Shown: positions 1,618-23,160, counted from the stretch's first letter. The stretch: DNA of 50,950 nucleotides from Candidatus Iainarchaeum sp. (GCA_028711485.1 JAQTSF010000001.1:1-50950), one strand, 5' to 3'. A program made the numbers and translations. Notes: a model not told the origin generated them from the letters alone.

Positions 1618-2508
1618 CTATTTTTTTAGACTTTGAATTAATTTTATTGCTGCGTCTACAGCTCTTTCTGCGTATTCTTTTTTTCTTGCTTCTGCCTGCT
1701 CCTCTGTTGCTCCCGGACCGATTATCCCTAAAGCAATTGGTTTGTTAAATTCTAAGGAGAGCTTAATTAATGCCTGAGCTGTTGAATGACCAATCACCTC
1801 ATCATGTAATGTGTCTCCTTTTATTATTGCACCTAAGACCACTACCCCATCATTAGTCTTATCATAAAGAAGTTTCTTAGCTGCAAGAGGAACATCATAT
1901 GCGCCAGGAACGCGTATTATTGTAATATTATTAGTATTGATTATTGTTTGAGAGTTAATATGTTCTATTGCAAATTTTTCCATTTCTTTTGTGATTTGAG
2001 AGTTAAATTCACAAACTACAAAGGCAAGTTTAATTTTCTTTTCTTTGTTTGGGGTTACTTCTCCTTCATCTTCTTTACCTTGTCTAATGCCTTTTCCTGC
2101 ATTCTTAATTAATTTTTCTGGAGAAATGGATAAATCAATTAAATTATGAATGTGTTTTCTTATTCTGCTATTACAAATTTCAAAAAATTCTTTTTCATTC
2201 CAGGCTTCGTTTTCATGGACAAAAACCTCGATTATGTGTTTATTTGTAAGTAATTTTGCTTGTTGAATTCCTAGAGAAGCCTCATGCCCGCATTGAGTAT
2301 CTATTGGTGCTCCTCCAACCATACCTAATGCAATTACAGAATCACAACCAGAGTCTAGAAGTATTTTACACTCTACTGCAAGGTCTTTTACCCCCGGAAC
2401 GGTTTTTCTGATATGTTTAATATTTGAATAAGATTTTTCTAGTTCATCAATTGCAATTTCTCCCATATTTACTCTGGAAAACATCGTATCTATAATACCA
2501 ACTTTCAT
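1618..2508 (-). CDS. Fusion of archaeal-type riboflavin synthase (N-terminal) and 6,7-dimethyl-8-ribityllumazine synthase (C-terminal)
   Basis: ORF track 1618..2544. The likely start is MKVGIIDTMFSRV at 2508, which removes the overlap with ribB. The N half (IRKTVPGVKDL...HEASLG...NKHIIEVFVHE...AGKGIRQG) resembles the Methanocaldococcus-type riboflavin synthase as I recall it. The C half (FVVCEFNSQIT...RVPGAYDVPLAAKKLL...DGVVVLGAIIKGDTLHDEVI...ALGIIGPG) is RibH-like. Confidence 0.8.
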   Translation of the reverse strand: MKVGIIDTMFSRVNMGEIAIDELEKSYSNIKHIRKTVPGVKDLAVECKILLDSGCDSVIALGMVGGAPIDTQCGHEASLGIQQAKLLTNKHIIEVFVHENEAWNEKEFFEICNSRIRKHIHNLIDLSISPEKLIKNAGKGIRQGKEDEGEVTPNKEKKIKLAFVVCEFNSQITKEMEKFAIEHINSQTIINTNNITIIRVPGAYDVPLAAKKLLYDKTNDGVVVLGAIIKGDTLHDEVIGHSTAQALIKLSLEFNKPIALGIIGPGATEEQAEARKKEYAERAVDAAIKLIQSLKK

Positions 2509-2512
2509 AAAT

Positions 2513-3157
2513 TCACCTAAACAATTCTTTTTCTTTTGAGGCATCGATTAGAAGAAAATCATTTTCTTTGGCAAAAACTTTTGCAGATTCAATTGAAAGT
2601 GCGTTGCCATCCTCTCCGAGCATTTCACAGATAACTGCTATTGGAAGAAGACCGGCTTTCTTACATAAAAAAGTGCTTAATTCTGTGTGACCTCTTCTTA
2701 ATTGTAATGACTTTGCTGAGCGTAGTAAAAAGACGTGCCCTGGGGAATAGAATTCATTATAGAATTTTTCTTTGTTTTTGGATTCGAGAGTATTATAAAA
2801 TTCTAAAATTGTTTTTGCACGGTCTTTATCTGTGATTCCTGTAAAGGTTTTCCTATGATTTATAGATAAAGAAAATGCTGGTTTATCCCCATAAGGGGTT
2901 TTTGAAATTTTAAGAGAGGAGTATTGCTCTGGAAGAACTTCTGAAATAAAGGGAATGTTTAGAAAATCTGAAAGTTCGGCAGATGTTGAAACACAAATTA
3001 AGCCGCCTGCATGTGTTCTTAGGAATTGGATTTGTTTGTAAGTAATCTTTTTAGGGTAAAAAAGCATGTCTATTTCATCTTCTCTTTTTCCTCCATCATA
3101 AAGAAGAATTGGGGTGTGAGATAAAAGTGAAGTTTTTATTTGAATTAAATCGACCAT
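2513..3157 (-). CDS. ribB: 3,4-dihydroxy-2-butanone 4-phosphate synthase
   Basis: YDGGKREDEIDMLF, THAGGLICV, RRGHTELS...AVICEML motifs. Confidence 0.85.
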   Translation of the reverse strand: MVDLIQIKTSLLSHTPILLYDGGKREDEIDMLFYPKKITYKQIQFLRTHAGGLICVSTSAELSDFLNIPFISEVLPEQYSSLKISKTPYGDKPAFSLSINHRKTFTGITDKDRAKTILEFYNTLESKNKEKFYNEFYSPGHVFLLRSAKSLQLRRGHTELSTFLCKKAGLLPIAVICEMLGEDGNALSIESAKVFAKENDFLLIDASKEKELFR

Positions 3158-3172
3158 AGATATATATAGTTA

Positions 3173-3194
3173 AATTACTATTAAAATAGTAATT
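3173..3194. promoter_or_regulatory. Perfect palindrome AATTACTATT-aa-AATAGTAATT upstream of the ribB-ribCH-ribA operon; candidate operator
   Basis: 10-bp arms, read directly, 16-37 nt upstream of the ribB ATG (3157, minus strand) and overlapping the expected TATA region. The 9-mer ATTACTATT recurs at 20947-20955 upstream of ribK. Confidence 0.4.
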
Positions 3195-3210
3195 ACTTAA
3201 AAATTGGTAA

Positions 3211-4677
3211 TTATTTAAAGGTGGAAAGTTTGGTCTGCCCGAGAGGCTTCTTTTCCCCTACTATAATATACCCATCTTTCTTAAAAGAAATGTTCGAGAG
3301 AATGCTTTTCATTTTTTTCTCCCGGTTGATAGATGCCCAGTAAAAATATTCATCCCTACTTTTCCGTGTAATTAAAATATATACTTCACCTTGAGAGAAA
3401 CGCCCGGTTCTCCCTCTTCTTTGAATTGAACGAATTTCACTAGGAATGGGTTCATAAAAAATTACTACATCTACTGCAGGTATATCTAAACCTTCTTCGC
3501 CTACGGAAGAAGAACATAATATGTTAAATTTTCCTTCTCTGAAATCAGATAGAGTTTCTTCTTGAAGTTTTTTTGTGAAATTATCCTTTTTTCCCATAAA
3601 AACCCGGGAATTAAAATTGTTTTTATTTAGGTGTTTAGATATTAGAGTTATTTGATCACGATATTGTGCAAAAACAATAATTTTCTTATTTTTAAGAGTA
3701 GAAAGAATGGTTGTTAATAGTTCTAATTTTGGATGGGATTGAGAGGGTAGTAGTAAAATTCTTTTTATTAGGGGATTGTTTAGAAGAATTTTAGAAGATT
3801 TTGTGGTTTTTTCACTTAACCGATTGATATATTGTTGAAGAACTTGTAGTGATTGAGTTTCTAGAAGTTCAACCATATGTAATAGATTTAGTAAAAGTGC
3901 GTAGTTCAAAAGAGCAATAAATTTGGTTTTTTTAGAGGATTTTAGTATTCTAACCCTTAAATGCATAAATTGGGTTTTGGATTTGAGAGGTGGAGGAAAA
4001 CCGAAAGCTGCCAGAACTTTTGCGTATTTTGAGATAAGAGACTCCAAATCTCGTTTTATTAACATGTACGTTGGTGGAAGATCTACAAACTGCCAAAAGA
4101 TATTTGTTTGATGTGTATAGGGTTTTACATCAATATCTGTGGTGGTACGAAGTTCTACGTTTTTGATATACAGATTAGAAAGAACCTCTTCTATTCTTTC
4201 TTTTCTTCCGCCGGGAGAAGCAGTTAATGAAACTATTAATGCATTATCTTTTACTTTTTCAGCTATTTTTACATAGGCATAATCCCCAACAGCTCTATGA
4301 CCCTCATCAAATATAATTAAGGAAAATTGAGGGGAAAGTAATTTGTTTTTTAAATCATTGTTAATTGTTTGGGGTGTGGCGACGATAATTTTCTTATTAT
4401 ATTCCTCTTTTCGTTTTTTTGGTGGAAGATCTCCTGTAACTATAGTTACATTAGTTTTTTCACTATCTAAAATTGAGGTAATAGAGTTAAAATGTTGAAG
4501 AACTAGTGGTTTTGTAGGCGCCAAAAATAAGCATCTCCCAGAGGAAATTTTATCCTTGATTAACATAAGTGCAATTAGTGTTTTACCTAGTCCCGTCGGA
4601 AGAACAACTAAAGTATTACCTTTACGTAGAATAGAATCAAAAATATTTTTCTGATATTCACGAGGGGTTAGATTCAT
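3211..4677 (-). CDS. Hef/FANCM-like SF2 helicase (helicase part only, no ERCC4 nuclease domain)
   Basis: ORF track 3211..4746 starts at GTG; ATG at 4677 gives MNLTPREYQ. Motifs LPTGLGKT (Walker A), FDEGH (DExH), SSSVGEEGLDIP, QRRGRTGR. Confidence 0.75.
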   Translation of the reverse strand: MNLTPREYQKNIFDSILRKGNTLVVLPTGLGKTLIALMLIKDKISSGRCLFLAPTKPLVLQHFNSITSILDSEKTNVTIVTGDLPPKKRKEEYNKKIIVATPQTINNDLKNKLLSPQFSLIIFDEGHRAVGDYAYVKIAEKVKDNALIVSLTASPGGRKERIEEVLSNLYIKNVELRTTTDIDVKPYTHQTNIFWQFVDLPPTYMLIKRDLESLISKYAKVLAAFGFPPPLKSKTQFMHLRVRILKSSKKTKFIALLNYALLLNLLHMVELLETQSLQVLQQYINRLSEKTTKSSKILLNNPLIKRILLLPSQSHPKLELLTTILSTLKNKKIIVFAQYRDQITLISKHLNKNNFNSRVFMGKKDNFTKKLQEETLSDFREGKFNILCSSSVGEEGLDIPAVDVVIFYEPIPSEIRSIQRRGRTGRFSQGEVYILITRKSRDEYFYWASINREKKMKSILSNISFKKDGYIIVGEKKPLGQTKLSTFK

Positions 4678-4789
4678 TAATAATAAATATATTGAAAAGT
4701 AATAAAAATAGAGTTTAGAGTTAATTGATAGGGGTTGGTTTTCCACTATTAAGTTTATTTTTTTATTTTTTATTTTTATTGTTTGTTAT

Positions 4790-4805: not shown

Positions 4806-4835
4806 TTTTTATTATTTATGTTTTATTATTACTTT

Positions 4836-5072
4836 ATGTTTTATGTTTATTTCTATGATTTAACTCCAAAATCTCCAAGAAATTACAACAAATTAAAAAG
4901 GAAATTCTACTATCATTTAAATAAATTAAAAATAGATAAAAGTTATTGGAAAAACAAATCTGTCCTCGTAATTCCTCCTGAAATGGAAGGGATTATGGAT
5001 TCATTTTTTATCTCTTTTAAGCCAGAAATAGAAGTATATAAATTACAAACAAAATTTATTGAAGAAATTTAA
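4836..5072 (+). CDS. Small hypothetical protein (78 aa); possible Cas2/VapD-like ferredoxin-fold pattern
   Basis: ORF track 4725..5072, but the first 37 codons are Phe/Tyr/Leu low complexity from an AT-rich spacer; the start taken here is an internal ATG at 4836. MFYVYFYDL..NYNKLKRKFYYHLNKL..NKSVLVIP..IEVYKL..IEEI loosely follows the beta-alpha-beta-beta-alpha-beta layout of Cas2 as I remember it. Weak. Confidence 0.3.
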   Translation: MFYVYFYDLTPKSPRNYNKLKRKFYYHLNKLKIDKSYWKNKSVLVIPPEMEGIMDSFFISFKPEIEVYKLQTKFIEEI

Positions 5073-8111: not shown

Positions 8112-8939
8112 TTAGTTTAGTTTTGAAATCGGGTCAATACAGGAATTCCCTCCTTCAAGACACAAAGCTATTTTATCTTCCAACGCTTTACCTACAGAAT
8201 CATAAGAATAACCTACCCAGGTCTCTTCATCTAAGAATGTCATAGGAACTCCACCTGCGGTTTTCCCATATGCAGTTGCCATTACATTGAAGAACTGTGC
8301 ATTGTTCTGGTTTTTCCAAACTTCACAAGATTTTATCAGTAACTCTGGATGTTTACTTTCTAATTCTCTAAGAAGTACTTTTTCATTTGAACAATGTGGA
8401 CAACCATCCCCCCAGAAAAAGTACATTACAACTGTTTTTCCAGAAAGGTCAGTTACTGTACCATCAACACCATTAACACATTCATTTTCTTCGCTTCCAC
8501 CAGAATCATTTACTGGATCATACAATCCAATTTCTTTTAAATATGCATCAATTTCTGCTTCGTATTCTACGAATGGTATTTCAGAAATCAACATCAATGT
8601 TTCATAATCTGTTGTAGTATACACTTTGAGATTTTGTACTCCCACAGTAATATTATGTACGATGATTTCCTCTTTTTCAACAGAATTTACAGAAGCGGTT
8701 TCTTTACTCCCAAATGAAGCTAAGTATAATTTTTCCATCAATGTTTTTACCTTATTTACTTTTGTTTGATCTGGAGTAAAAACATCTTCTCCATTTTCAG
8801 TAGTGTCGGGTTTAACTACCCAACCAAATCCAAATCCAATTAATAATGCCAGAACTCCAACAATAAATAACGGATTTATACTATTCCCCGAGCAACAAGG
8901 CATTTCCTCTACAGTTTCTTTTTCTTTTTTAGAAGCCAT
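8112..8939 (-). CDS. Membrane-anchored thioredoxin-fold protein (CPHC active site)
   Basis: N-terminal TM helix (LFIVGVLALLIGFGFGWVV); C-terminal VVMYFFWGDGCPHCSNEK thioredoxin-like CxxC. Confidence 0.6.
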   Translation of the reverse strand: MASKKEKETVEEMPCCSGNSINPLFIVGVLALLIGFGFGWVVKPDTTENGEDVFTPDQTKVNKVKTLMEKLYLASFGSKETASVNSVEKEEIIVHNITVGVQNLKVYTTTDYETLMLISEIPFVEYEAEIDAYLKEIGLYDPVNDSGGSEENECVNGVDGTVTDLSGKTVVMYFFWGDGCPHCSNEKVLLRELESKHPELLIKSCEVWKNQNNAQFFNVMATAYGKTAGGVPMTFLDEETWVGYSYDSVGKALEDKIALCLEGGNSCIDPISKLN

Positions 8940-9073: not shown

Positions 9074-9238
9074 GATTTATGAGGTTTTCACATGCGTGAT
9101 CCGTTTTAAACGTTGGTACGTTTAAAATATCCCGCATTAAGGTATTAAAGAGGTTTTCACATGCGTGATAATTCGAACTGACAATACAAGTTCAAATATC
9201 CCGCATTAAAGTATTTATGAGGTGTTCACATGCGTGAT
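9074..9238 (+). repeat. Triplicated SD + ATG-CGT-GAT module (43-nt block, period 69 nt) with two divergent 26-nt hairpin-forming inserts and two mini-ORFs
   Basis: Blocks at 9127-9169 and 9196-9238 differ at 4 positions; a partial copy is at 9074-9100. Mini-ORFs are MRDPF* (9092-9109) and MRDNSN* (9161-9181). Hairpin 9104-9127 has a 10-bp perfect stem. Confidence 0.8.
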
Positions 9239-10393
9239 GTAGCTATTATTGGAGTAGGAATGACCTCCTTTGGAGAACATTGGAGTAAAGGATTCAGGGA
9301 ACTTGTAGTGGAAGCAGGAACAAATGCATTAAAAGATGCTGGAATTTCAGGAGAAAAAGTAGATGCTGGTTTTGTAGGAACAATGGCTTCAGGTAAATTA
9401 ATTGGACAAGAACACATTGGTGCTCTAATTGCTGATTTTATGGGTCTTAACCCCATTCCAATTACGAGAGTGGAAGGAGCATGTGCATCAGGCTCTCTTG
9501 CATTAAGACAAGGAATTATGGCAGTAAGTTCAGGGATGCACGATACTGTAGTTGTTGGTGGAGTAGAAAAAATGACGGATTTAGGTACTACTGGAGTCAC
9601 CACCGCATTGGGTGGAGCTGGAGATCAAGAATGGGAGCTTTTTTTTGGTGCAACTTTTCCCGCATTATACGCCCTTATGGCAAGAAGACATATGATTGAT
9701 TTTGGAACAACTGAAGAAATGCTTGCTTCTGTTTCAGTTAAAAATCACAAACACGGTTCAATGAATCCCAATGCTCAATTCCAAAACCAAATAACCCTCC
9801 AAGATGTTTTAAATTCCAAAATGGTTGCAAATCCATTAAAAATTCTCGACTGTTCACCTATCTCTGACGGAGCTGCAGCATTAGTTTTAGTTCCTTTAGA
9901 AAAAGCACATAGTTATACAAAAAAACCAGTAAGAATTTTAGCATCTGCACAAGCAAGTGATACTATCTCTTTACATTCCAGAGAGAGTCTTACTGGAGTA
10001 AAATCAGCTCAAATAGCTTCTCAGAATGCTTATAAATATGCTAAACTTTCACCAAAAAATATTGACGTTGCAGAGGTTCATGATTGCTTCTCAATAGCAG
10101 AAATAATGGCAATAGAAGACTTAGGATTTTTTAAGAAAGGAGAAGGCGGCATTGCTTCATTAGAAGGGAGAACTTCTCTTGGAGGAGAAATTCCAATTAA
10201 TACCTCTGGTGGATTAAAAGCATGCGGTCACCCTGTGGGTGCAACAGGGGTAAAACAATTAGTGGAATTATATTGGCAGCTTAAAGGTGATGCAGGAAAC
10301 AGACAGGTAAAAGATGCAAACATTGGACTTTCCCATAATGTTGGGGGGAGTGGAGCAACAACAGTTGTTCATATTGTAAAAGGTGAGTGGTAA
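9230..10393 (+). CDS. Archaeal thiolase (acetyl-CoA C-acetyltransferase family)
   Basis: MRDVAIIGVGMTSFG, EGACASGSLA (catalytic Cys), VHDCFS, GGLKACGHPVGATG. Confidence 0.85.
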   Translation: MRDVAIIGVGMTSFGEHWSKGFRELVVEAGTNALKDAGISGEKVDAGFVGTMASGKLIGQEHIGALIADFMGLNPIPITRVEGACASGSLALRQGIMAVSSGMHDTVVVGGVEKMTDLGTTGVTTALGGAGDQEWELFFGATFPALYALMARRHMIDFGTTEEMLASVSVKNHKHGSMNPNAQFQNQITLQDVLNSKMVANPLKILDCSPISDGAAALVLVPLEKAHSYTKKPVRILASAQASDTISLHSRESLTGVKSAQIASQNAYKYAKLSPKNIDVAEVHDCFSIAEIMAIEDLGFFKKGEGGIASLEGRTSLGGEIPINTSGGLKACGHPVGATGVKQLVELYWQLKGDAGNRQVKDANIGLSHNVGGSGATTVVHIVKGEW

Positions 10394-15712: not shown

Positions 15713-17401
15713 TTATTTAGTTAATCTTCTCAATTCAAACCATTTATTATTAACTATAAAATTAATTATTGTTTTTACCATTCCTTTAATATATACACTG
15801 AATCTTCTAAATTTTAATTTTGCTTTTTCCCAGAATCTGTATTTTGGATTCGCACTTCTTGATTTAACTATTCTTAAAACTCCTTGTTCATCAACCTCAG
15901 AAAATACAACTGCACTTAATCTAACTTCTTTTCTTTCCATTCCACCAACAATTTCTATTGATTTTGGTTTTCTATTTTCTGATGTTAATCTTTGCACCAG
16001 TGTTGGCGCCATTAATACTCTGGTGAACCCTGCTCCAAAACCATCTCCACCAAGTAAATACTCTGCACTTCTTCTCTTTGGACTGCGTCCATCTCTTCCA
16101 CCAAAAGGTTTTGTTTCATGTTCATCACTTTCATAATGCGTATCTAGGCCTATTCTACTGAACAAATGCGCAAATGCCATATTAACTGCATTTGGTGTTG
16201 CTACTACCCCACTACGTGGTCCAAAAAATTCATTAATAGATGAAGGTATTGCATTAGCCAGCCAATAATTACCAACCTGCATTCTATCATGAGAACTTAG
16301 ATTGTTAAAAGCAGCTATCGAAGTGCACATTCTTGCAAAACCAATTGCTTCAAAAGGTTCCAGTAATCCTGTTTCAACTGCGCTAAACATTCCTGTAATA
16401 TGCAATCTAGGATCCAATCCATGACCATTCCTCTCTAAAAGTTGCAAAAATCCATCCGAAATATGCATCTCTTGTATTGCTCCATGAGCAACTAATAAAG
16501 CAACCTTACCTTTTTTTCTTAAGGGTTCAAGAACACGAAACATTTCAATCATATGCATTCCTGAGAAATAAGGAGGCATTTTAAGATCAGGGTCTCTTCT
16601 TTCTAAAATTTCTCTTCTAACCATTTCTACAGTTCTTATACTATCACACATTATTACAACATGAGGTCCGTTTAATACTCCTACAGTCATTGTAAGTTCA
16701 AAACCAGGCACATAAGTCATTCCAATAGCCCTCCCAATACTCTTAAGCATTCTATGCATTCTTTCATTAGAACTATTGTGTGGTGTTGGGCAAAAAACAT
16801 CTGTATTATACACCATTAATCTTCTAAGAATATCTGCCATTTTTGATCCCCCATCATCAAAGATAACATCGCTTGATCTAAAAAGATGATTTGCATGGAA
16901 ATGTACCTGCATTCTATAATCTTCTGCTCCTTTATAAGCTGCAGTTTGAACTATTTCATTAACCACTCTTGCAACCTCTCTTTCACTGCTTCCAGGGTTC
17001 AAAACCCTTTTTATAAAAATTTCTTCTGGAGGAAGAAACAATGCTCCTTCATCAGCTCTTGGATTAGTATAAACAACTTCAACATTTCCTTCATTTTCTC
17101 TAAAGTAAACAAAAAAATTAGATCGTGCTTTACCAACACCTAAATTATAAACAACTTCATTAGCTTTTACTACTCCTGTTTTTTCCTCAGAACCTATAAG
17201 ACCATGTTTTCTTAATTCCCCATCTATATCTTTAGCAACTATTCTTCCAAATCCAACTCTACCCATCATTCTATCAAATAGTTCTATAATCTGATTTTTT
17301 TGTAATCTCCTTCCACCCAAAAGCCCTATTTTTGCTATTAACCCAATTCGTTCTGGAGCATTGGAAGGTTGTTTTCCATGTGTCGCTATAAGTTGTTTCA
17401 T
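15713..17401 (-). CDS. Conserved-looking 562-aa protein of unknown function (HxHxxH motif, basic C-terminal tail)
   Basis: Long uninterrupted ORF with complex, enzyme-like composition (R/G/H/M/A-rich, unlike neighbouring K/I/N-rich proteins). QVHFHANHLFRSSD; no P-loop and no Cys cluster. I cannot place it in a family. TATA-like run TTTATATATAAATATAT lies about 9-27 nt upstream of the ATG on the minus strand. Confidence 0.75.
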   Translation of the reverse strand: MKQLIATHGKQPSNAPERIGLIAKIGLLGGRRLQKNQIIELFDRMMGRVGFGRIVAKDIDGELRKHGLIGSEEKTGVVKANEVVYNLGVGKARSNFFVYFRENEGNVEVVYTNPRADEGALFLPPEEIFIKRVLNPGSSEREVARVVNEIVQTAAYKGAEDYRMQVHFHANHLFRSSDVIFDDGGSKMADILRRLMVYNTDVFCPTPHNSSNERMHRMLKSIGRAIGMTYVPGFELTMTVGVLNGPHVVIMCDSIRTVEMVRREILERRDPDLKMPPYFSGMHMIEMFRVLEPLRKKGKVALLVAHGAIQEMHISDGFLQLLERNGHGLDPRLHITGMFSAVETGLLEPFEAIGFARMCTSIAAFNNLSSHDRMQVGNYWLANAIPSSINEFFGPRSGVVATPNAVNMAFAHLFSRIGLDTHYESDEHETKPFGGRDGRSPKRRSAEYLLGGDGFGAGFTRVLMAPTLVQRLTSENRKPKSIEIVGGMERKEVRLSAVVFSEVDEQGVLRIVKSRSANPKYRFWEKAKLKFRRFSVYIKGMVKTIINFIVNNKWFELRRLTK

Positions 17402-17448
17402 AAATACACATATATATTTATATATAAACTTTATAAAAACCTATCTTT

Positions 17449-17602
17449 CATAGCCTTTTAGTTTCTAAGTATAAACTAGTTTGAAAAGGCTATGTCCGAC
17501 AGAACGTCGCAACGTTCTGTGGACCATTGAAACTTGGCGAAGCAAGTTTCAATATTTGACGGGTAACGTCCCGTCAAACCATAGAACGACACGTCGTTCT
17601 AT
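17449..17602. other. Back-to-back array of five different perfect hairpins (candidate structured RNA or DNA cruciform cluster)
   Basis: A 17449-17494 (11 bp). B 17495-17523 (12 bp plus one bulge). C 17526-17553 (11 bp). D 17555-17578 (9 bp). E 17581-17602 (9 bp). Linkers are 0-2 nt and all stem pairs are Watson-Crick. Confidence 0.85.
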
Positions 17603-17659
17603 TGGTAACCCAAAACCAGCTTCTCTTCTAACTAATAAATAATAGATCAAAAAGATGGA

Positions 17660-17760
17660 TGGACTCGCCCAGATTTGAACTGGGGACCTTCACCATGTCA
17701 AGGTGACGTCATACCGTTATCCGCTTTGAAATTAATTTCAAAGCTCTAGACCACGAGTCC
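17660..17760 (-). tRNA. tRNA-Val (anticodon GAC) with a ~28-nt non-canonical intron in the D-loop
   Basis: Folded by hand. Acceptor GGACTCG/CGAGTCC, anticodon arm TCACC-TTGACAT-GGTGA, T arm CCCAG-TTCAAAT-CTGGG. Removing 17716-17743 gives a 73-nt tRNA with D-loop AGAGGGTA. Confidence 0.8.
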
Positions 17761-17844
17761 TAAAACAAGATAACTCTTAATTATTCTCCAATTTCTTTTT
17801 AATTCTTATCCCTTAATATAATTCTCAAACTTTTTGGTGATAAA

Positions 17845-19005
17845 ATGTCTTCAAAGAACTATTTATTTACTTCCGAATCCGTAACTGAGGGACATCCCGA
17901 TAAAATATGCGATCAGATTTCTGATGCAATACTAGATGAACTTATAAAACAGGATCCAAAATCAAGAGTTGCCGTTGAAACTGCAGTAACTACTGGTTTA
18001 GTTTTGGTCATGGGTGAAATAACAACAAAAGGATATGTTGAAATTCCTCAAATTGTTAGGGAAGTGATAAAAGATATAGGTTATACTTCACCAGAATATC
18101 AATTTGATTACCAATCCTGCGGTGTGCTCGTCTCTATTCATTCTCAGTCTCCGGATATTGCACAGGGAGTTAATGAAAAAATTGAGCATGAACAAGGTGC
18201 AGGAGACCAGGGAATAATGTTTGGCTACGCATCAAAGGAAACACCAGAACTTATGCCTCTTCCTATAATTCTTGCCCACAATCTTGCAAAAAAATTATCT
18301 GAAGTTAGAAAAAATAAAACAATCTCATACCTGCGTCCAGATGGAAAAACACAAGTAACTGTAGAATATGAAAATTATACTCCAAAAAGAATACATACAA
18401 TTGTTATTGCTGCGCAACACAATCCAGATGTTTCTTTAGATCAAATAAAGAAAGATATAACTAAACACGTAATAACTCCAGTTTGTAGTTCCTTAATGGA
18501 TTCAAATACAATTATTCATATTAACGGAACAGGGAAGTTTGTTATAGGTGGTCCGACCGGAGATTCCGGAGTTACAGGAAGAAAAATAATTGTAGATACT
18601 TATGGGGGAAAAGGACACCACGGTGGAGGTTGCTTTTCCGGAAAAGATCCTTCAAAAGTTGACCGCTCAGGAGCTTATTTTGCAAGGTATGTTGCAAAAA
18701 ACATCGTAGCTGCAGGTCTTGCAGATATTTGTGAAGTTCAAATTTCCTATGTTATAGGGGTTTCAAAACCATTATCTGTTTTTGTAGATACTCGAGGAAC
18801 AAATAAAATCCCGGTTGAAAAAATTCAGGAGCTAATTCAGGAAAATTTTTCATTCAAACCAAAAGACATGATTGAAAAATTAGATTTACTCAGGCCTATT
18901 TACAAGAAAACTGCTTCCTATGGTCATTTTGGAAGAAATGAACCCGAATTTACTTGGGAAAAAACAGATATGGCAGAAACATTGAGAAAAAAAGCTGGAC
19001 TCTAA
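17845..19005 (+). CDS. metK: S-adenosylmethionine synthase, bacterial/eukaryotic type
   Basis: [48 protein letters not shown]. Confidence 0.95.
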
Positions 19006-22813: not shown

Positions 22814-22977
22814 TTTCTTCTTCTTTCAGATTTATTTTTTTATACCTTTTAATTTATTTTATATCAGACGCTGTTGACCTCATCACCAACCTTTTGACTC
22901 ATTACATACACACGGCAAAACGTTGACGAAAAACCATGCGATATATCTTTGTCAGGTTATCAGAGGTTGTTCATGTC

Positions 22978-23160
22978 ATCACAATGAGCGACCCAAGAGG
23001 AACAATCAACAACTTAAGCCTTTACTCGTTAGTGAATTGTGATTTTTGAACGTTAGTTCAAAAGTATCACAATGAGCGACCAAGGATTGACAAGCATTCC
23101 AGAGTCTTTACTCATAAGCGAATTGTGAACTGTAAGAATCAGTTCACCTAATCACAAGAT
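22978..23160 (+). repeat. Two ~88-nt units (box1 - variable 24-26 nt - box2 - variable hairpin) plus a degenerate third box1
   Basis: Box1 ATCACAATGAGCGACC is at 22978-22993 and 23066-23081. Box2 CTTTACTCNTNAGNGAATTGTGA is at 23020-23042 and 23106-23128. Hairpins are at 23044-23063 (8 bp) and 23125-23147 (8 bp). ATCACAAgat occurs at 23151. Confidence 0.8.

Follow-up and report, generated by a model that had tools for sequence, protein, structure and literature searches.

In fungal mitochondria, the double-hairpin elements and GC clusters are multi-copy, mobile, GC-rich adjacent hairpins that lie in AT-rich genomes, and in archaea with AT-rich genomes small structured non-coding RNAs are reportedly recovered as GC-rich islands in screens of the HgcC-G type. 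In bacteria, REPs occur in tens to hundreds of copies per genome, belong to one sequence family and carry a GTAG or CGTC tag (PMC3733652, PMC3116915), a REPIN consists of two inverted REPs with a spacer (PMC3116915), and terminators made of hairpin clusters have also been described (PMC8355165). Here we describe an array of five adjacent hairpins in a stretch of 50,950 nucleotides (nt) from Candidatus Iainarchaeum sp. (GCA_028711485.1 JAQTSF010000001.1:1-50950; the whole stretch is referred to as the window), located between a tRNA-Val gene and a gene for a 562-residue (562-aa) protein of the PHP fold. The array is real and far beyond chance, and it is probably either a small structured RNA gene or an undescribed hairpin DNA element.

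The array is composed of five consecutive perfect Watson-Crick hairpins, named A to E, which occupy 157 bases (17449-17605) and are separated by linkers of 0-2 nt:

Positions 17449-17494: hairpin A, arms 17449-17459 and 17484-17494 (CATAGCCTTTT/AAAAGGCTATG), an 11-bp perfect stem with a 24-nt loop.

Positions 17495-17523: hairpin B, called here the B-type module, arms 17499-17507 and 17512-17520, with the order TCC, a bulged G, ACAGAACGT, cgca, ACGTTCTGT, GGA.

Positions 17526-17553: hairpin C, arms 17526-17536 and 17543-17553 (ATTGAAACTTG/CAAGTTTCAAT), an 11-bp stem with a 6-nt loop.

Positions 17555-17578: hairpin D, arms 17555-17563 and 17570-17578 (TTTGACGGG/CCCGTCAAA), a 9-bp GC-rich stem with a 6-nt loop.

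Positions 17579-17605: hairpin E, arms 17581-17589 and 17594-17602, with the order CC, ATAGAACGA, cacg, TCGTTCTAT, a bulged T, GG.

An initial annotation, made from the sequence alone, had reported five perfect hairpins placed back to back between 17449 and 17602, and all their arms are indeed 100% Watson-Crick, so that, as it also held, the stems do not reveal the strand. Its description of the stems as mostly unrelated needs refining, given that hairpin E is a B-type module in the orientation opposite to that of hairpin B. In B, the 9-bp stem is lengthened past one bulged G by a TCC/GGA clamp; in E, the stem of 9-10 bp is lengthened past one bulged T by a CC/GG clamp; and the two, as inverted copies, bracket a spacer of 55 nt. 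Hairpin A holds a weak inner hairpin inside its 24-nt loop. In the minimum free energy (MFE) fold of the plus strand of 17495-17605, B pairs with E across C and D to give a junction of -69.2 kcal/mol, near isoenergetic with the five local hairpins, which when folded one by one add up to roughly -66 to -67 kcal/mol; this cross-pairing could represent alternative conformations, or may be a mere by-product of duplication. No direct or tandem repeats were found at the locus. Neither was a plausible open reading frame (ORF) across the array, as only TTG- or GTG-initiated ones traverse the palindromes, and a small protein gene was rejected on that ground.

The folding of the 221-nt stretch that holds the array departs strongly from chance, with RNA z-scores of -8.2 on the minus strand and -9.1 on the plus strand and a DNA z-score of -10.6, and none of 200 dinucleotide shuffles folded as well. 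In a scan that covered the large intergenic regions of the window, the array was the most structured stretch (z of -9.3 vs -5.0 for the neighbouring tRNA). Furthermore, the window contains 11 perfect hairpins with a stem of at least 9 bp, vs 2-6 per shuffled window; four of these 11 fall in the array, which is the sole hairpin cluster of its kind in the 51 kb.

The base composition is also distinctive. The GC content of the array (43%) lies above that of its intergenic flanks (13% and 30%) and above the 32% of the genome, and approaches that of the adjacent tRNA (48%). A GC-rich composition in AT-rich genomes is typical of structured RNA genes. The 11 CpG that the initial annotation had counted in 17495-17602 are exact and represent, for 108 nt, the maximum of the window, where the 99.9th percentile is 7 and the genomic observed/expected CpG ratio is 0.52. 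The ACGT positions that it had listed likewise match. As a side observation, ACGT is about three-fold under-represented in the window (47 found vs 147 expected), 4 of the 47 sites falling within the array; an ACGT-specific restriction-modification system or a general avoidance of CpG may account for this scarcity.

The hairpin potential is not restricted to the window, and its conservation among relatives, a point raised in the initial annotation, is borne out by one further genome. A second array, made of four contiguous hairpins, lies at 4808-4959 of the locus L082, and the same array is present in L083 and L098, the PHP proteins of these loci being 40% identical to that of the window. Its fold z-scores are -5.7 and -7.1, and no other hairpin cluster occurs in 21.6 kb of this second genome. 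The sequence likeness is concentrated at one place:

Positions 17511-17535: conserved core at the junction of hairpins B and C, AACGTTCTGTGGACCATTGAAACTT against AAGGTTTTGTGGTCCATTGAAACTT in L082, with 22 of 25 positions identical.

This core is unique in the window. The local alignment of the two arrays on the same strand (plus vs plus) reaches a score of 35, vs 20 in the opposite orientation; dinucleotide shuffles gave a mean of 17.8 (standard deviation 2.2, maximum 26), and the maximum among 1339 pieces of real DNA from these genomes was 32. The homology of the arrays has a p of about 1e-4, estimated for a single targeted comparison. Both follow a common order, namely a large-loop hairpin, a B-type hairpin, GGWCC, the C hairpin and a further hairpin or hairpins, again with linkers of 0-2 nt. 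The outer 8 bp of hairpin C are identical in L082, and hairpin B is homologous to L082 4847-4870 (B') and, reversed, to hairpin E; no clear counterpart of hairpin D was found in L082. MAFFT mis-aligns the B stems of the two arrays. The patterns of the core and of the B and C types each occur once in the window and once in the 21.6 kb of the second genome, and no strict B-type pattern was found elsewhere in 810 kb of sequence.

The region upstream of the PHP-family gene was compared in about twelve genomes, and a metagenome locus search with a 10-sequence alignment of the PHP family gave four loci. Two gene orders recur. The order metK, tRNA-Val, PHP gene is shared by the window, L081 (PHP proteins 56% identical) and L087/L088 (35%), and the spacers of L081 and L087 contain no hairpins. 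In L082/L083/L098 (40%) and in L097, tRNA-Val is followed first by a gene of 335/314 aa on the other strand and then by the PHP gene. The loci L084/L092, L085/L090, L089, L091, L094 and L095/L096 have short spacers without hairpins. Among the relatives examined, only L082 carries a comparable array. A synteny search of genome contigs based on metK returned distant Micrarchaeota and bacterial loci only, without a common gene order. In L086, whose PHP protein is 26% identical and whose GC content is 53%, the perfect palindromes AGGGAGG|CCTCCCT and ATCCACGGGCT ga AGCCCGTGGAT lie upstream of the promoter (46-117); they are unrelated in sequence to the array, in a region cut by the contig end.

The favoured account of this distribution assumes that the array was gained once, in the ancestor of the clade of the window, L081, L082 and L097, and that two losses and an inversion followed. 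Two independent gains are improbable; inheritance with loss is favoured because two hits in the same spacer would hardly be expected at one copy or fewer per 20-50 kb. The initial annotation had considered that the array might always accompany homologues of the 562-aa gene. The linkage proved weak: about ten loci of the family lack the array, that of the closest relative (56% identity) among them, and an obligatory partner or regulator of the PHP gene was rejected on the same evidence.

The locus of the second genome is also informative as to the transcript to which the array might belong. In L082/L098, the tRNA-Val(GAC) gene lies at 8641-8713 and the 335-aa gene stands between the tRNA and the array, which sits between divergent genes and is inverted relative to both tRNA-Val and the PHP gene. 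Since, moreover, a run of five T (T5) directly follows the tRNA in the window, the proposal of a tRNA trailer, contained in the initial annotation, has to be abandoned. Its view that the array is not the leader of the mRNA for the 562-aa protein held up, as a conserved TATA box of the PHP gene stands between array and ATG and the homologous strand is antisense in L082. The array is independent of both tRNA-Val and the PHP mRNA, and of the options left by the initial annotation an independent small-RNA locus and a DNA-level element are both alive. The 314-335-aa gene itself (L082 3725-4732, L098 8725-9732, L097 166-1110), on the opposite strand between tRNA-Val and the PHP gene, matches no Pfam domain and has just two homologues among 5.8 billion proteins. 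In the two genomes where it is present, the locus lacks the metK that stands at this place in the window, and the 314-335-aa gene may be an insertion at the 3' flank of the tRNA.

How the stems were kept is best appreciated in the B-type module, of which three copies are available (window B, window E reversed, and L082 B') with the consensus CC-N-AYARAAC...GTTYTRT-GG. All 11 pairs are kept in the three copies, with 4 double changes and 0 one-sided changes, and the CC/GG clamp with its 1-nt bulge is retained in all of them. Compensatory changes of this kind would be expected of a structured RNA, and DNA-level template switching can mimic them (PMC8794818); template switching is documented to make perfect hairpins and compensatory-looking changes in a single step (PMC8794818).

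A first alternative, less likely than not and yet the close rival of the RNA gene reading that we place first, is a cluster of palindromes without RNA product, arisen at the DNA level by template switching or intrastrand correction, or else representing a miniature REP/REPIN-like or 'double-hairpin' mobile element, and placed in a permissive AT-rich spacer by a promoter, where it would be inert or would only shape the local DNA structure. The strict Watson-Crick pairing in both genomes, by which the two strands fold equally well, is in keeping with such an origin, as are the alternation of presence and absence among syntenic loci of both gene orders and the difference between the window array and its host in GC and CpG. 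B and E are, in turn, one bulged palindrome inverted around 55 nt in a REPIN-like manner, and cross-pair in the plus-strand MFE fold. On the other hand, REP/REPIN number hundreds per genome, whereas a single copy was found in the 51 kb of the window and another in the 21.6 kb of the second genome; at such a density it is improbable that the same spacer was hit twice independently, and there is no RAYT, IS200/IS605 or other transposase in the vicinity. Only the window copy is flanked by a 6-nt repeat, AAAACC, and no convincing target-site duplication or terminal repeat was recognized. The virus and plasmid matches that the initial annotation had envisaged did not materialize: scans of viral contigs with patterns for the core and for stems B, C and D, and blastn searches of phage and plasmid collections, gave no match. 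A core that is 79% identical beside PHP proteins that are 40% identical implies constraint.

The geometry of the hairpins bears on a second alternative. Between the two genomes, the spacing of the ATTGAAAC/GTTTCAAT arms of hairpin C changes from 12 nt to 3 nt, the loop and stem length of the B-type hairpin differ, and the outer triplets of B stand 16 vs 13 nt apart. Such shifted arm spacing argues against a site for a dimeric transcription factor on duplex DNA, whereas hairpin formation tolerates the shift. It therefore tells against a cis-regulatory upstream element, in which hairpins or cruciforms, bound by a regulator or absorbing supercoils, would modulate the adjacent promoter, with its B-recognition element (BRE) and TATA box, or divergent transcription. 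Such an element seems improbable to us. Admittedly, the array starts 2-17 nt from a core promoter in both genomes, one of its sides always adjoins the TATA region of the PHP family, and it faces the downstream TATA tract in the same orientation in both. The promoter faced in this conserved orientation, however, belongs to different genes in the two genomes, and the orthologous promoters operate without any array in about ten genomes. A reduced genome would, in addition, have to supply several regulators for five different palindromes. None of the half-sites recurs as a palindrome upstream of other genes or elsewhere in the window, which stands against the cis element and was also the ground for rejecting a regulon of palindromic operators.

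The sequences immediately flanking the array contain three signals that could delimit a transcription unit:

Positions 17430-17441, minus strand: GGTTTTTATAAA, a T5/TATA tract that is the conserved TATA box of the PHP gene; its T5 lies 9 nt past hairpin A and is a putative terminator.

Positions 17635-17642, minus strand: TTATTTAT, a weak TATA-like box about 26 nt upstream of ~17612, a candidate promoter.

Positions 17417-17424, plus strand: TTTATATA, a match to consensus about 26 nt upstream of hairpin A, a candidate plus-strand promoter.

The TATA motif AACATTATAAAAACC is conserved across the orthologous PHP loci, and hairpin A is the member of the array closest to this tract. The minus strand of the window corresponds to the minus strand of L082, and both arrays end 9-17 nt before a tract of the GGTTTTTATAAA type. 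In the window this tract is the TATA box of the PHP gene, in L082 that of the 335-aa gene, which is unrelated; only towards this downstream T5/TATA tract is the orientation of the array conserved. At the other end, L082 has a TATA-like counterpart, TTTATTTA, at 4989-4982, which is a good match there and lies 26 nt from the first hairpin. On the plus strand of the window, no T tract follows hairpin E.

The presence of T5 after both arrays on the homologous minus strand also suggests a third alternative, that of a terminator or insulator stack, in which RNA hairpins together with T5 would block read-through before the next promoter and stabilise a 3' end, the read-through coming from tRNA-Val in the window and, as antisense, from pyrG in L082. 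Bacterial hairpin-cluster terminators offer a described precedent (PMC8355165), and a need to act on both strands would account for the complete lack of G-U pairs. We consider this quite improbable all the same: archaeal termination makes use of oligo-T tracts and factor-dependent cleavage, not of hairpins (PMC7515710), the tRNA has its own T5 (17653-17649) about 44 nt upstream of hairpin E in the direction of transcription, and L081 and L087 share the order tRNA-Val to PHP gene without any hairpin. Five hairpins would be excessive for this purpose, and termination does not need a conserved B-C core sequence.

Altogether, the array is best explained as an autonomous structured module of about 160 nt, limited to one subclade of Iainarchaeota-like DPANN archaea, whose hairpins are kept by selection. 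As to its nature, the reading that we place first, tentatively, is that of a dispensable, lineage-restricted gene for a small structured, putative non-coding RNA. It comes first because of the GC contrast with the flanks, the kept order of the hairpins, the compensatory changes and the conserved orientation towards the T5/TATA tract. In such a gene, the TATA-like box at about 17635-17642 would serve as minus-strand promoter, transcription would start near 17612, about 7 nt before hairpin E, the hairpins would be read in the order E, D, C, B, A, and termination would take place in the T5 at 17439-17435, which is at once the TATA box of the gene that follows. Such a transcript would measure roughly 175 nt and consist of stacked stem-loops, having at its centre the B-type hairpin (CC-bulge-AYARAAC...GTTYTRT-GG) joined via GGWCC to the ATTGAAAC/GTTTCAAT hairpin. 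Transcription, strand, RNA ends and cellular role are all features that we infer.

Several observations weigh against this RNA gene and must be set beside those that favour it. The array of L082 has the GC content of its own genome, without enrichment, so that the CpG richness underlined in the initial annotation is not a conserved property. The two genomes together have about 95 stem pairs, none of them G-U, and where G-U extensions are possible they are found only on the plus strand of L082 (fold of -55.7 vs -47.3 kcal/mol), that is, on the strand opposite to the one favoured by the T5 tracts. The minus-strand TATA-like box of the window is weak, with about 5 of 8 consensus positions, and TATA-like strings are frequent in AT-rich spacers. 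Two carrier genomes and three module copies are too few for covariation statistics. Finally, L081 and L097, each the nearest relative of one carrier, lack the array, as do about eight further loci, and its absence from about ten related loci means that any function would be dispensable.

An extension of the RNA gene reading, which we regard as unlikely, would make the array the founding example of an undescribed class of structured RNAs in DPANN: a chain of perfect, coaxially stackable stem-loops built around a bulged double hairpin. Its stems would be strictly Watson-Crick since both strands, or both forms of nucleic acid, would matter, for instance through recognition by a nucleic-acid enzyme, for which the adjacent PHP-fold protein would be one candidate.

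The host is a DPANN archaeon, known from a metagenome-assembled genome of the Iainarchaeota/Micrarchaeota group, and the genes around the array are of the housekeeping type (riboflavin genes, purF, guaA, pyrG, metK, dcd, RuBisCO form III). Among the roughly 48 ORFs of the window scanned with Pfam there was no gene for a transposase or integrase, no cas gene and no gene for Orc1/Cdc6. The immediate neighbours are the following:

Positions 17660-17760, minus strand: tRNA-Val(GAC), matched over its 3' two-thirds by the Rfam tRNA model at 23.2 bits (below threshold) and by ARAGORN after deletion of an insert.

Positions 17649-17653, minus strand: T5 tract, 6 nt past the 3' end of tRNA-Val, an archaeal-type oligo-T terminator that parts the tRNA from the array.

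Positions 15713-17401, minus strand: the gene for the 562-aa PHP-fold, phosphoesterase/nuclease-like protein, characterized by HMMER, alignment, Pfam and AlphaFold.

Oligo-T tracts terminate transcription in archaea. The tRNA-Val of the initial annotation, with its 3' end 58 nt from hairpin E, is real: it is missed by ARAGORN and at the Rfam gathering threshold because of an insert of 21-32 nt in the D-loop, and once these nucleotides are removed ARAGORN reports tRNA-Val (gac). This insert includes a perfect 22-nt palindrome, GCTTTGAAATT|AATTTCAAAGC, at 17723-17744. Non-canonical insert sites are seen in the same tRNA of other loci, in the D-loop in L087 (~2830-2870) as in the window and in the region of the T-arm in L081 (~4860-4905), and the tRNA-Val(GAC) of L082 and L097 has no insert, a variety which suggests mobile tRNA introns in the clade. 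In L081, metK (2232-4733; 833-aa product) carries an intein with a LAGLIDADG homing-endonuclease domain, and the metK of the window (17845-19005) is without intein.

The 562-aa protein had been regarded as an orphan, and this did not survive a full HMMER search, which gave 108 representative relatives; a word-based search with a 10-sequence profile brought no further ones. The protein is unannotated by Pfam and NCBIfam, and the Pfam PHP models reach 4 of 40 members of its family; the PHP metal-site signature (H-x-H, DD, H, E, H, H, D-x-H) is invariant in the 40 aligned members, where it corresponds to H167, H169, D182, D183, H208, E235, H247, H306, D426 and H428. The AlphaFold model, built with the 40-sequence alignment (predicted local distance difference test, pLDDT, of 90.5), matches RNase AM, the PHP domains of Pol III and PolC, and Endonuclease Q, and has additional N- and C-terminal domains. 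The gene would thus encode a predicted PHP-fold phosphoesterase or nuclease-like protein, which is to be seen as the context of the array and not as its demonstrated partner. Genes of this family usually adjoin pyrG, usually in convergent orientation. A defence system was rejected, as PADLOC gave no match for the PHP gene.

Two other structured loci of the window deserve mention. At 9080-9240, about 2.3 tandem copies of a unit of ~70 nt (GAGGTTTTCACATGCGTGAT ... ATATCCCGCATTAA) lie immediately upstream of a thiolase gene (9230-10393) and run into its start. Each upstream copy repeats the ribosome-binding site and ATGCGTGAT and stops after 5-6 codons (MRDPF*, MRDNSN*); an outer stem, ATGCGTGAT/ATCCCGCAT, surrounds an inner hairpin, which in one case is the perfect hairpin 9104-9127. 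This looks like a leader-peptide or attenuator arrangement, or like a duplicated start region. At 22960-23160, two tandem units of ~95 nt are each closed by an 8-bp stem, ATCACAAT/ATTGTGAT, beside which stand UGAGCGA and UGA motifs, possibly degenerate C/D-box or k-turn motifs, and after each unit comes a perfect hairpin (23044-23063 and 23125-23147). Rfam gave chance-level matches only for this region, whose fold z-score is -3.9, and the units may be small RNA genes.

The genomes of DPANN archaea are tiny and their spacers short, and hardly anything is known of the non-coding RNAs or DNA structural elements of the group. The array, whose double-hairpin core has been conserved beside proteins that drifted to 40% identity, offers in this setting a natural case for asking how perfect stems are kept, whether by selection on an RNA or by template switching at replication.

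Returning to the described systems, the likeness to REP, BIME and REPIN is that of short extragenic palindromes placed head to tail in alternating orientation, with a bulge or mismatch in each, and it extends to the inversion of B and E around a spacer, to the intergenic location and to dispensability. REPs, however, are bacterial and mobilised by RAYT transposases, whose gene accompanies them, whereas the array lies in an archaeal host, at one locus per roughly 20-50 kb, has four different stem sequences and no transposase; no RAYT (IS200/IS605-like TnpA) was detected by Pfam among the roughly 48 ORFs of the window. CGTC does occur inside loops or stems of B, D and E, where it is not a terminal tag, and is absent from A and C. 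With the fungal mitochondrial elements, the array shares GC- and CpG-rich adjacent hairpins in an AT-rich spacer, a patchy presence and a double-hairpin unit (here B and C); it differs from them in that no second copy was found in the window or in the 21.6 kb, and the homologous array is not GC-rich.

Other families were compared and set aside. A CRISPR array consists of identical direct repeats that alternate with unique spacers of similar length; a CRISPR or tracr-like element was rejected for lack of direct repeats and cas genes. The attC sites of integrons, which come with an intI integrase, form hairpins of about 57-141 nt that have extrahelical bases and the core sites RYYYAAC/GTTRRRY. 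Here, the hairpins measure 22-29 nt and the window holds no tyrosine recombinase, on which grounds an integron attC was rejected; AAC/GTT occurs in B, E and C, in a context that departs from the R/Y pattern. Archaeal oriC regions have dyad-symmetric intergenic elements in common with the array, and the L082 stem ATTTCCACC/GGTGGAAAT contains TTCC...GGAA half-motifs of the mini origin recognition box (mini-ORB) (PMC1904270). These origins consist of repeated ORB units with a TTCC...GAA core on the flanks of an AT-rich unwinding element, usually beside orc1/cdc6 (PMC1904270); a replication origin was rejected, since the window array shows neither repeated ORB units nor the TTCC/GAA core, no orc1/cdc6 is found among the ORFs of the window, and syntenic relatives lack the array. 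The hairpin-cluster terminators of bacteria resemble it in having several adjacent stable hairpins, an inter-operon position and a T tract on one strand (PMC8355165), and differ in that the archaeal polymerase needs no hairpin, relatives dispense with the array and that of L082 lies between divergent genes.

Among the archaeal RNAs of the HgcC-G type, the points of agreement are a GC-rich, strongly folding island in a genome of 32% GC, with a composition near that of the adjacent tRNA, and the TATA-like and oligo-T signals on its flanks. The differences are that the host is apparently not a hyperthermophile and that Rfam has no match to the array at gathering thresholds in the window; at a permissive E-value, 17300-17900 and L082 4700-5010 gave chance-level miRNA and small-RNA matches only, far below threshold. 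Functional RNAs usually have internal loops, G-U pairs and long-range helices, whereas the stems here are perfect and simple. The initial annotation knew of no class of elements made of several different adjacent perfect hairpins, and with Rfam empty at both thresholds this judgement stands. The array fits no described family: in different respects it is like BIME/REPIN clusters, like the double-hairpin elements of organelles and like GC-island small RNAs, and it departs from each of these in the features that define them; it is a candidate for a lineage-specific small RNA or for the first REP/REPIN-like hairpin element in DPANN archaea.

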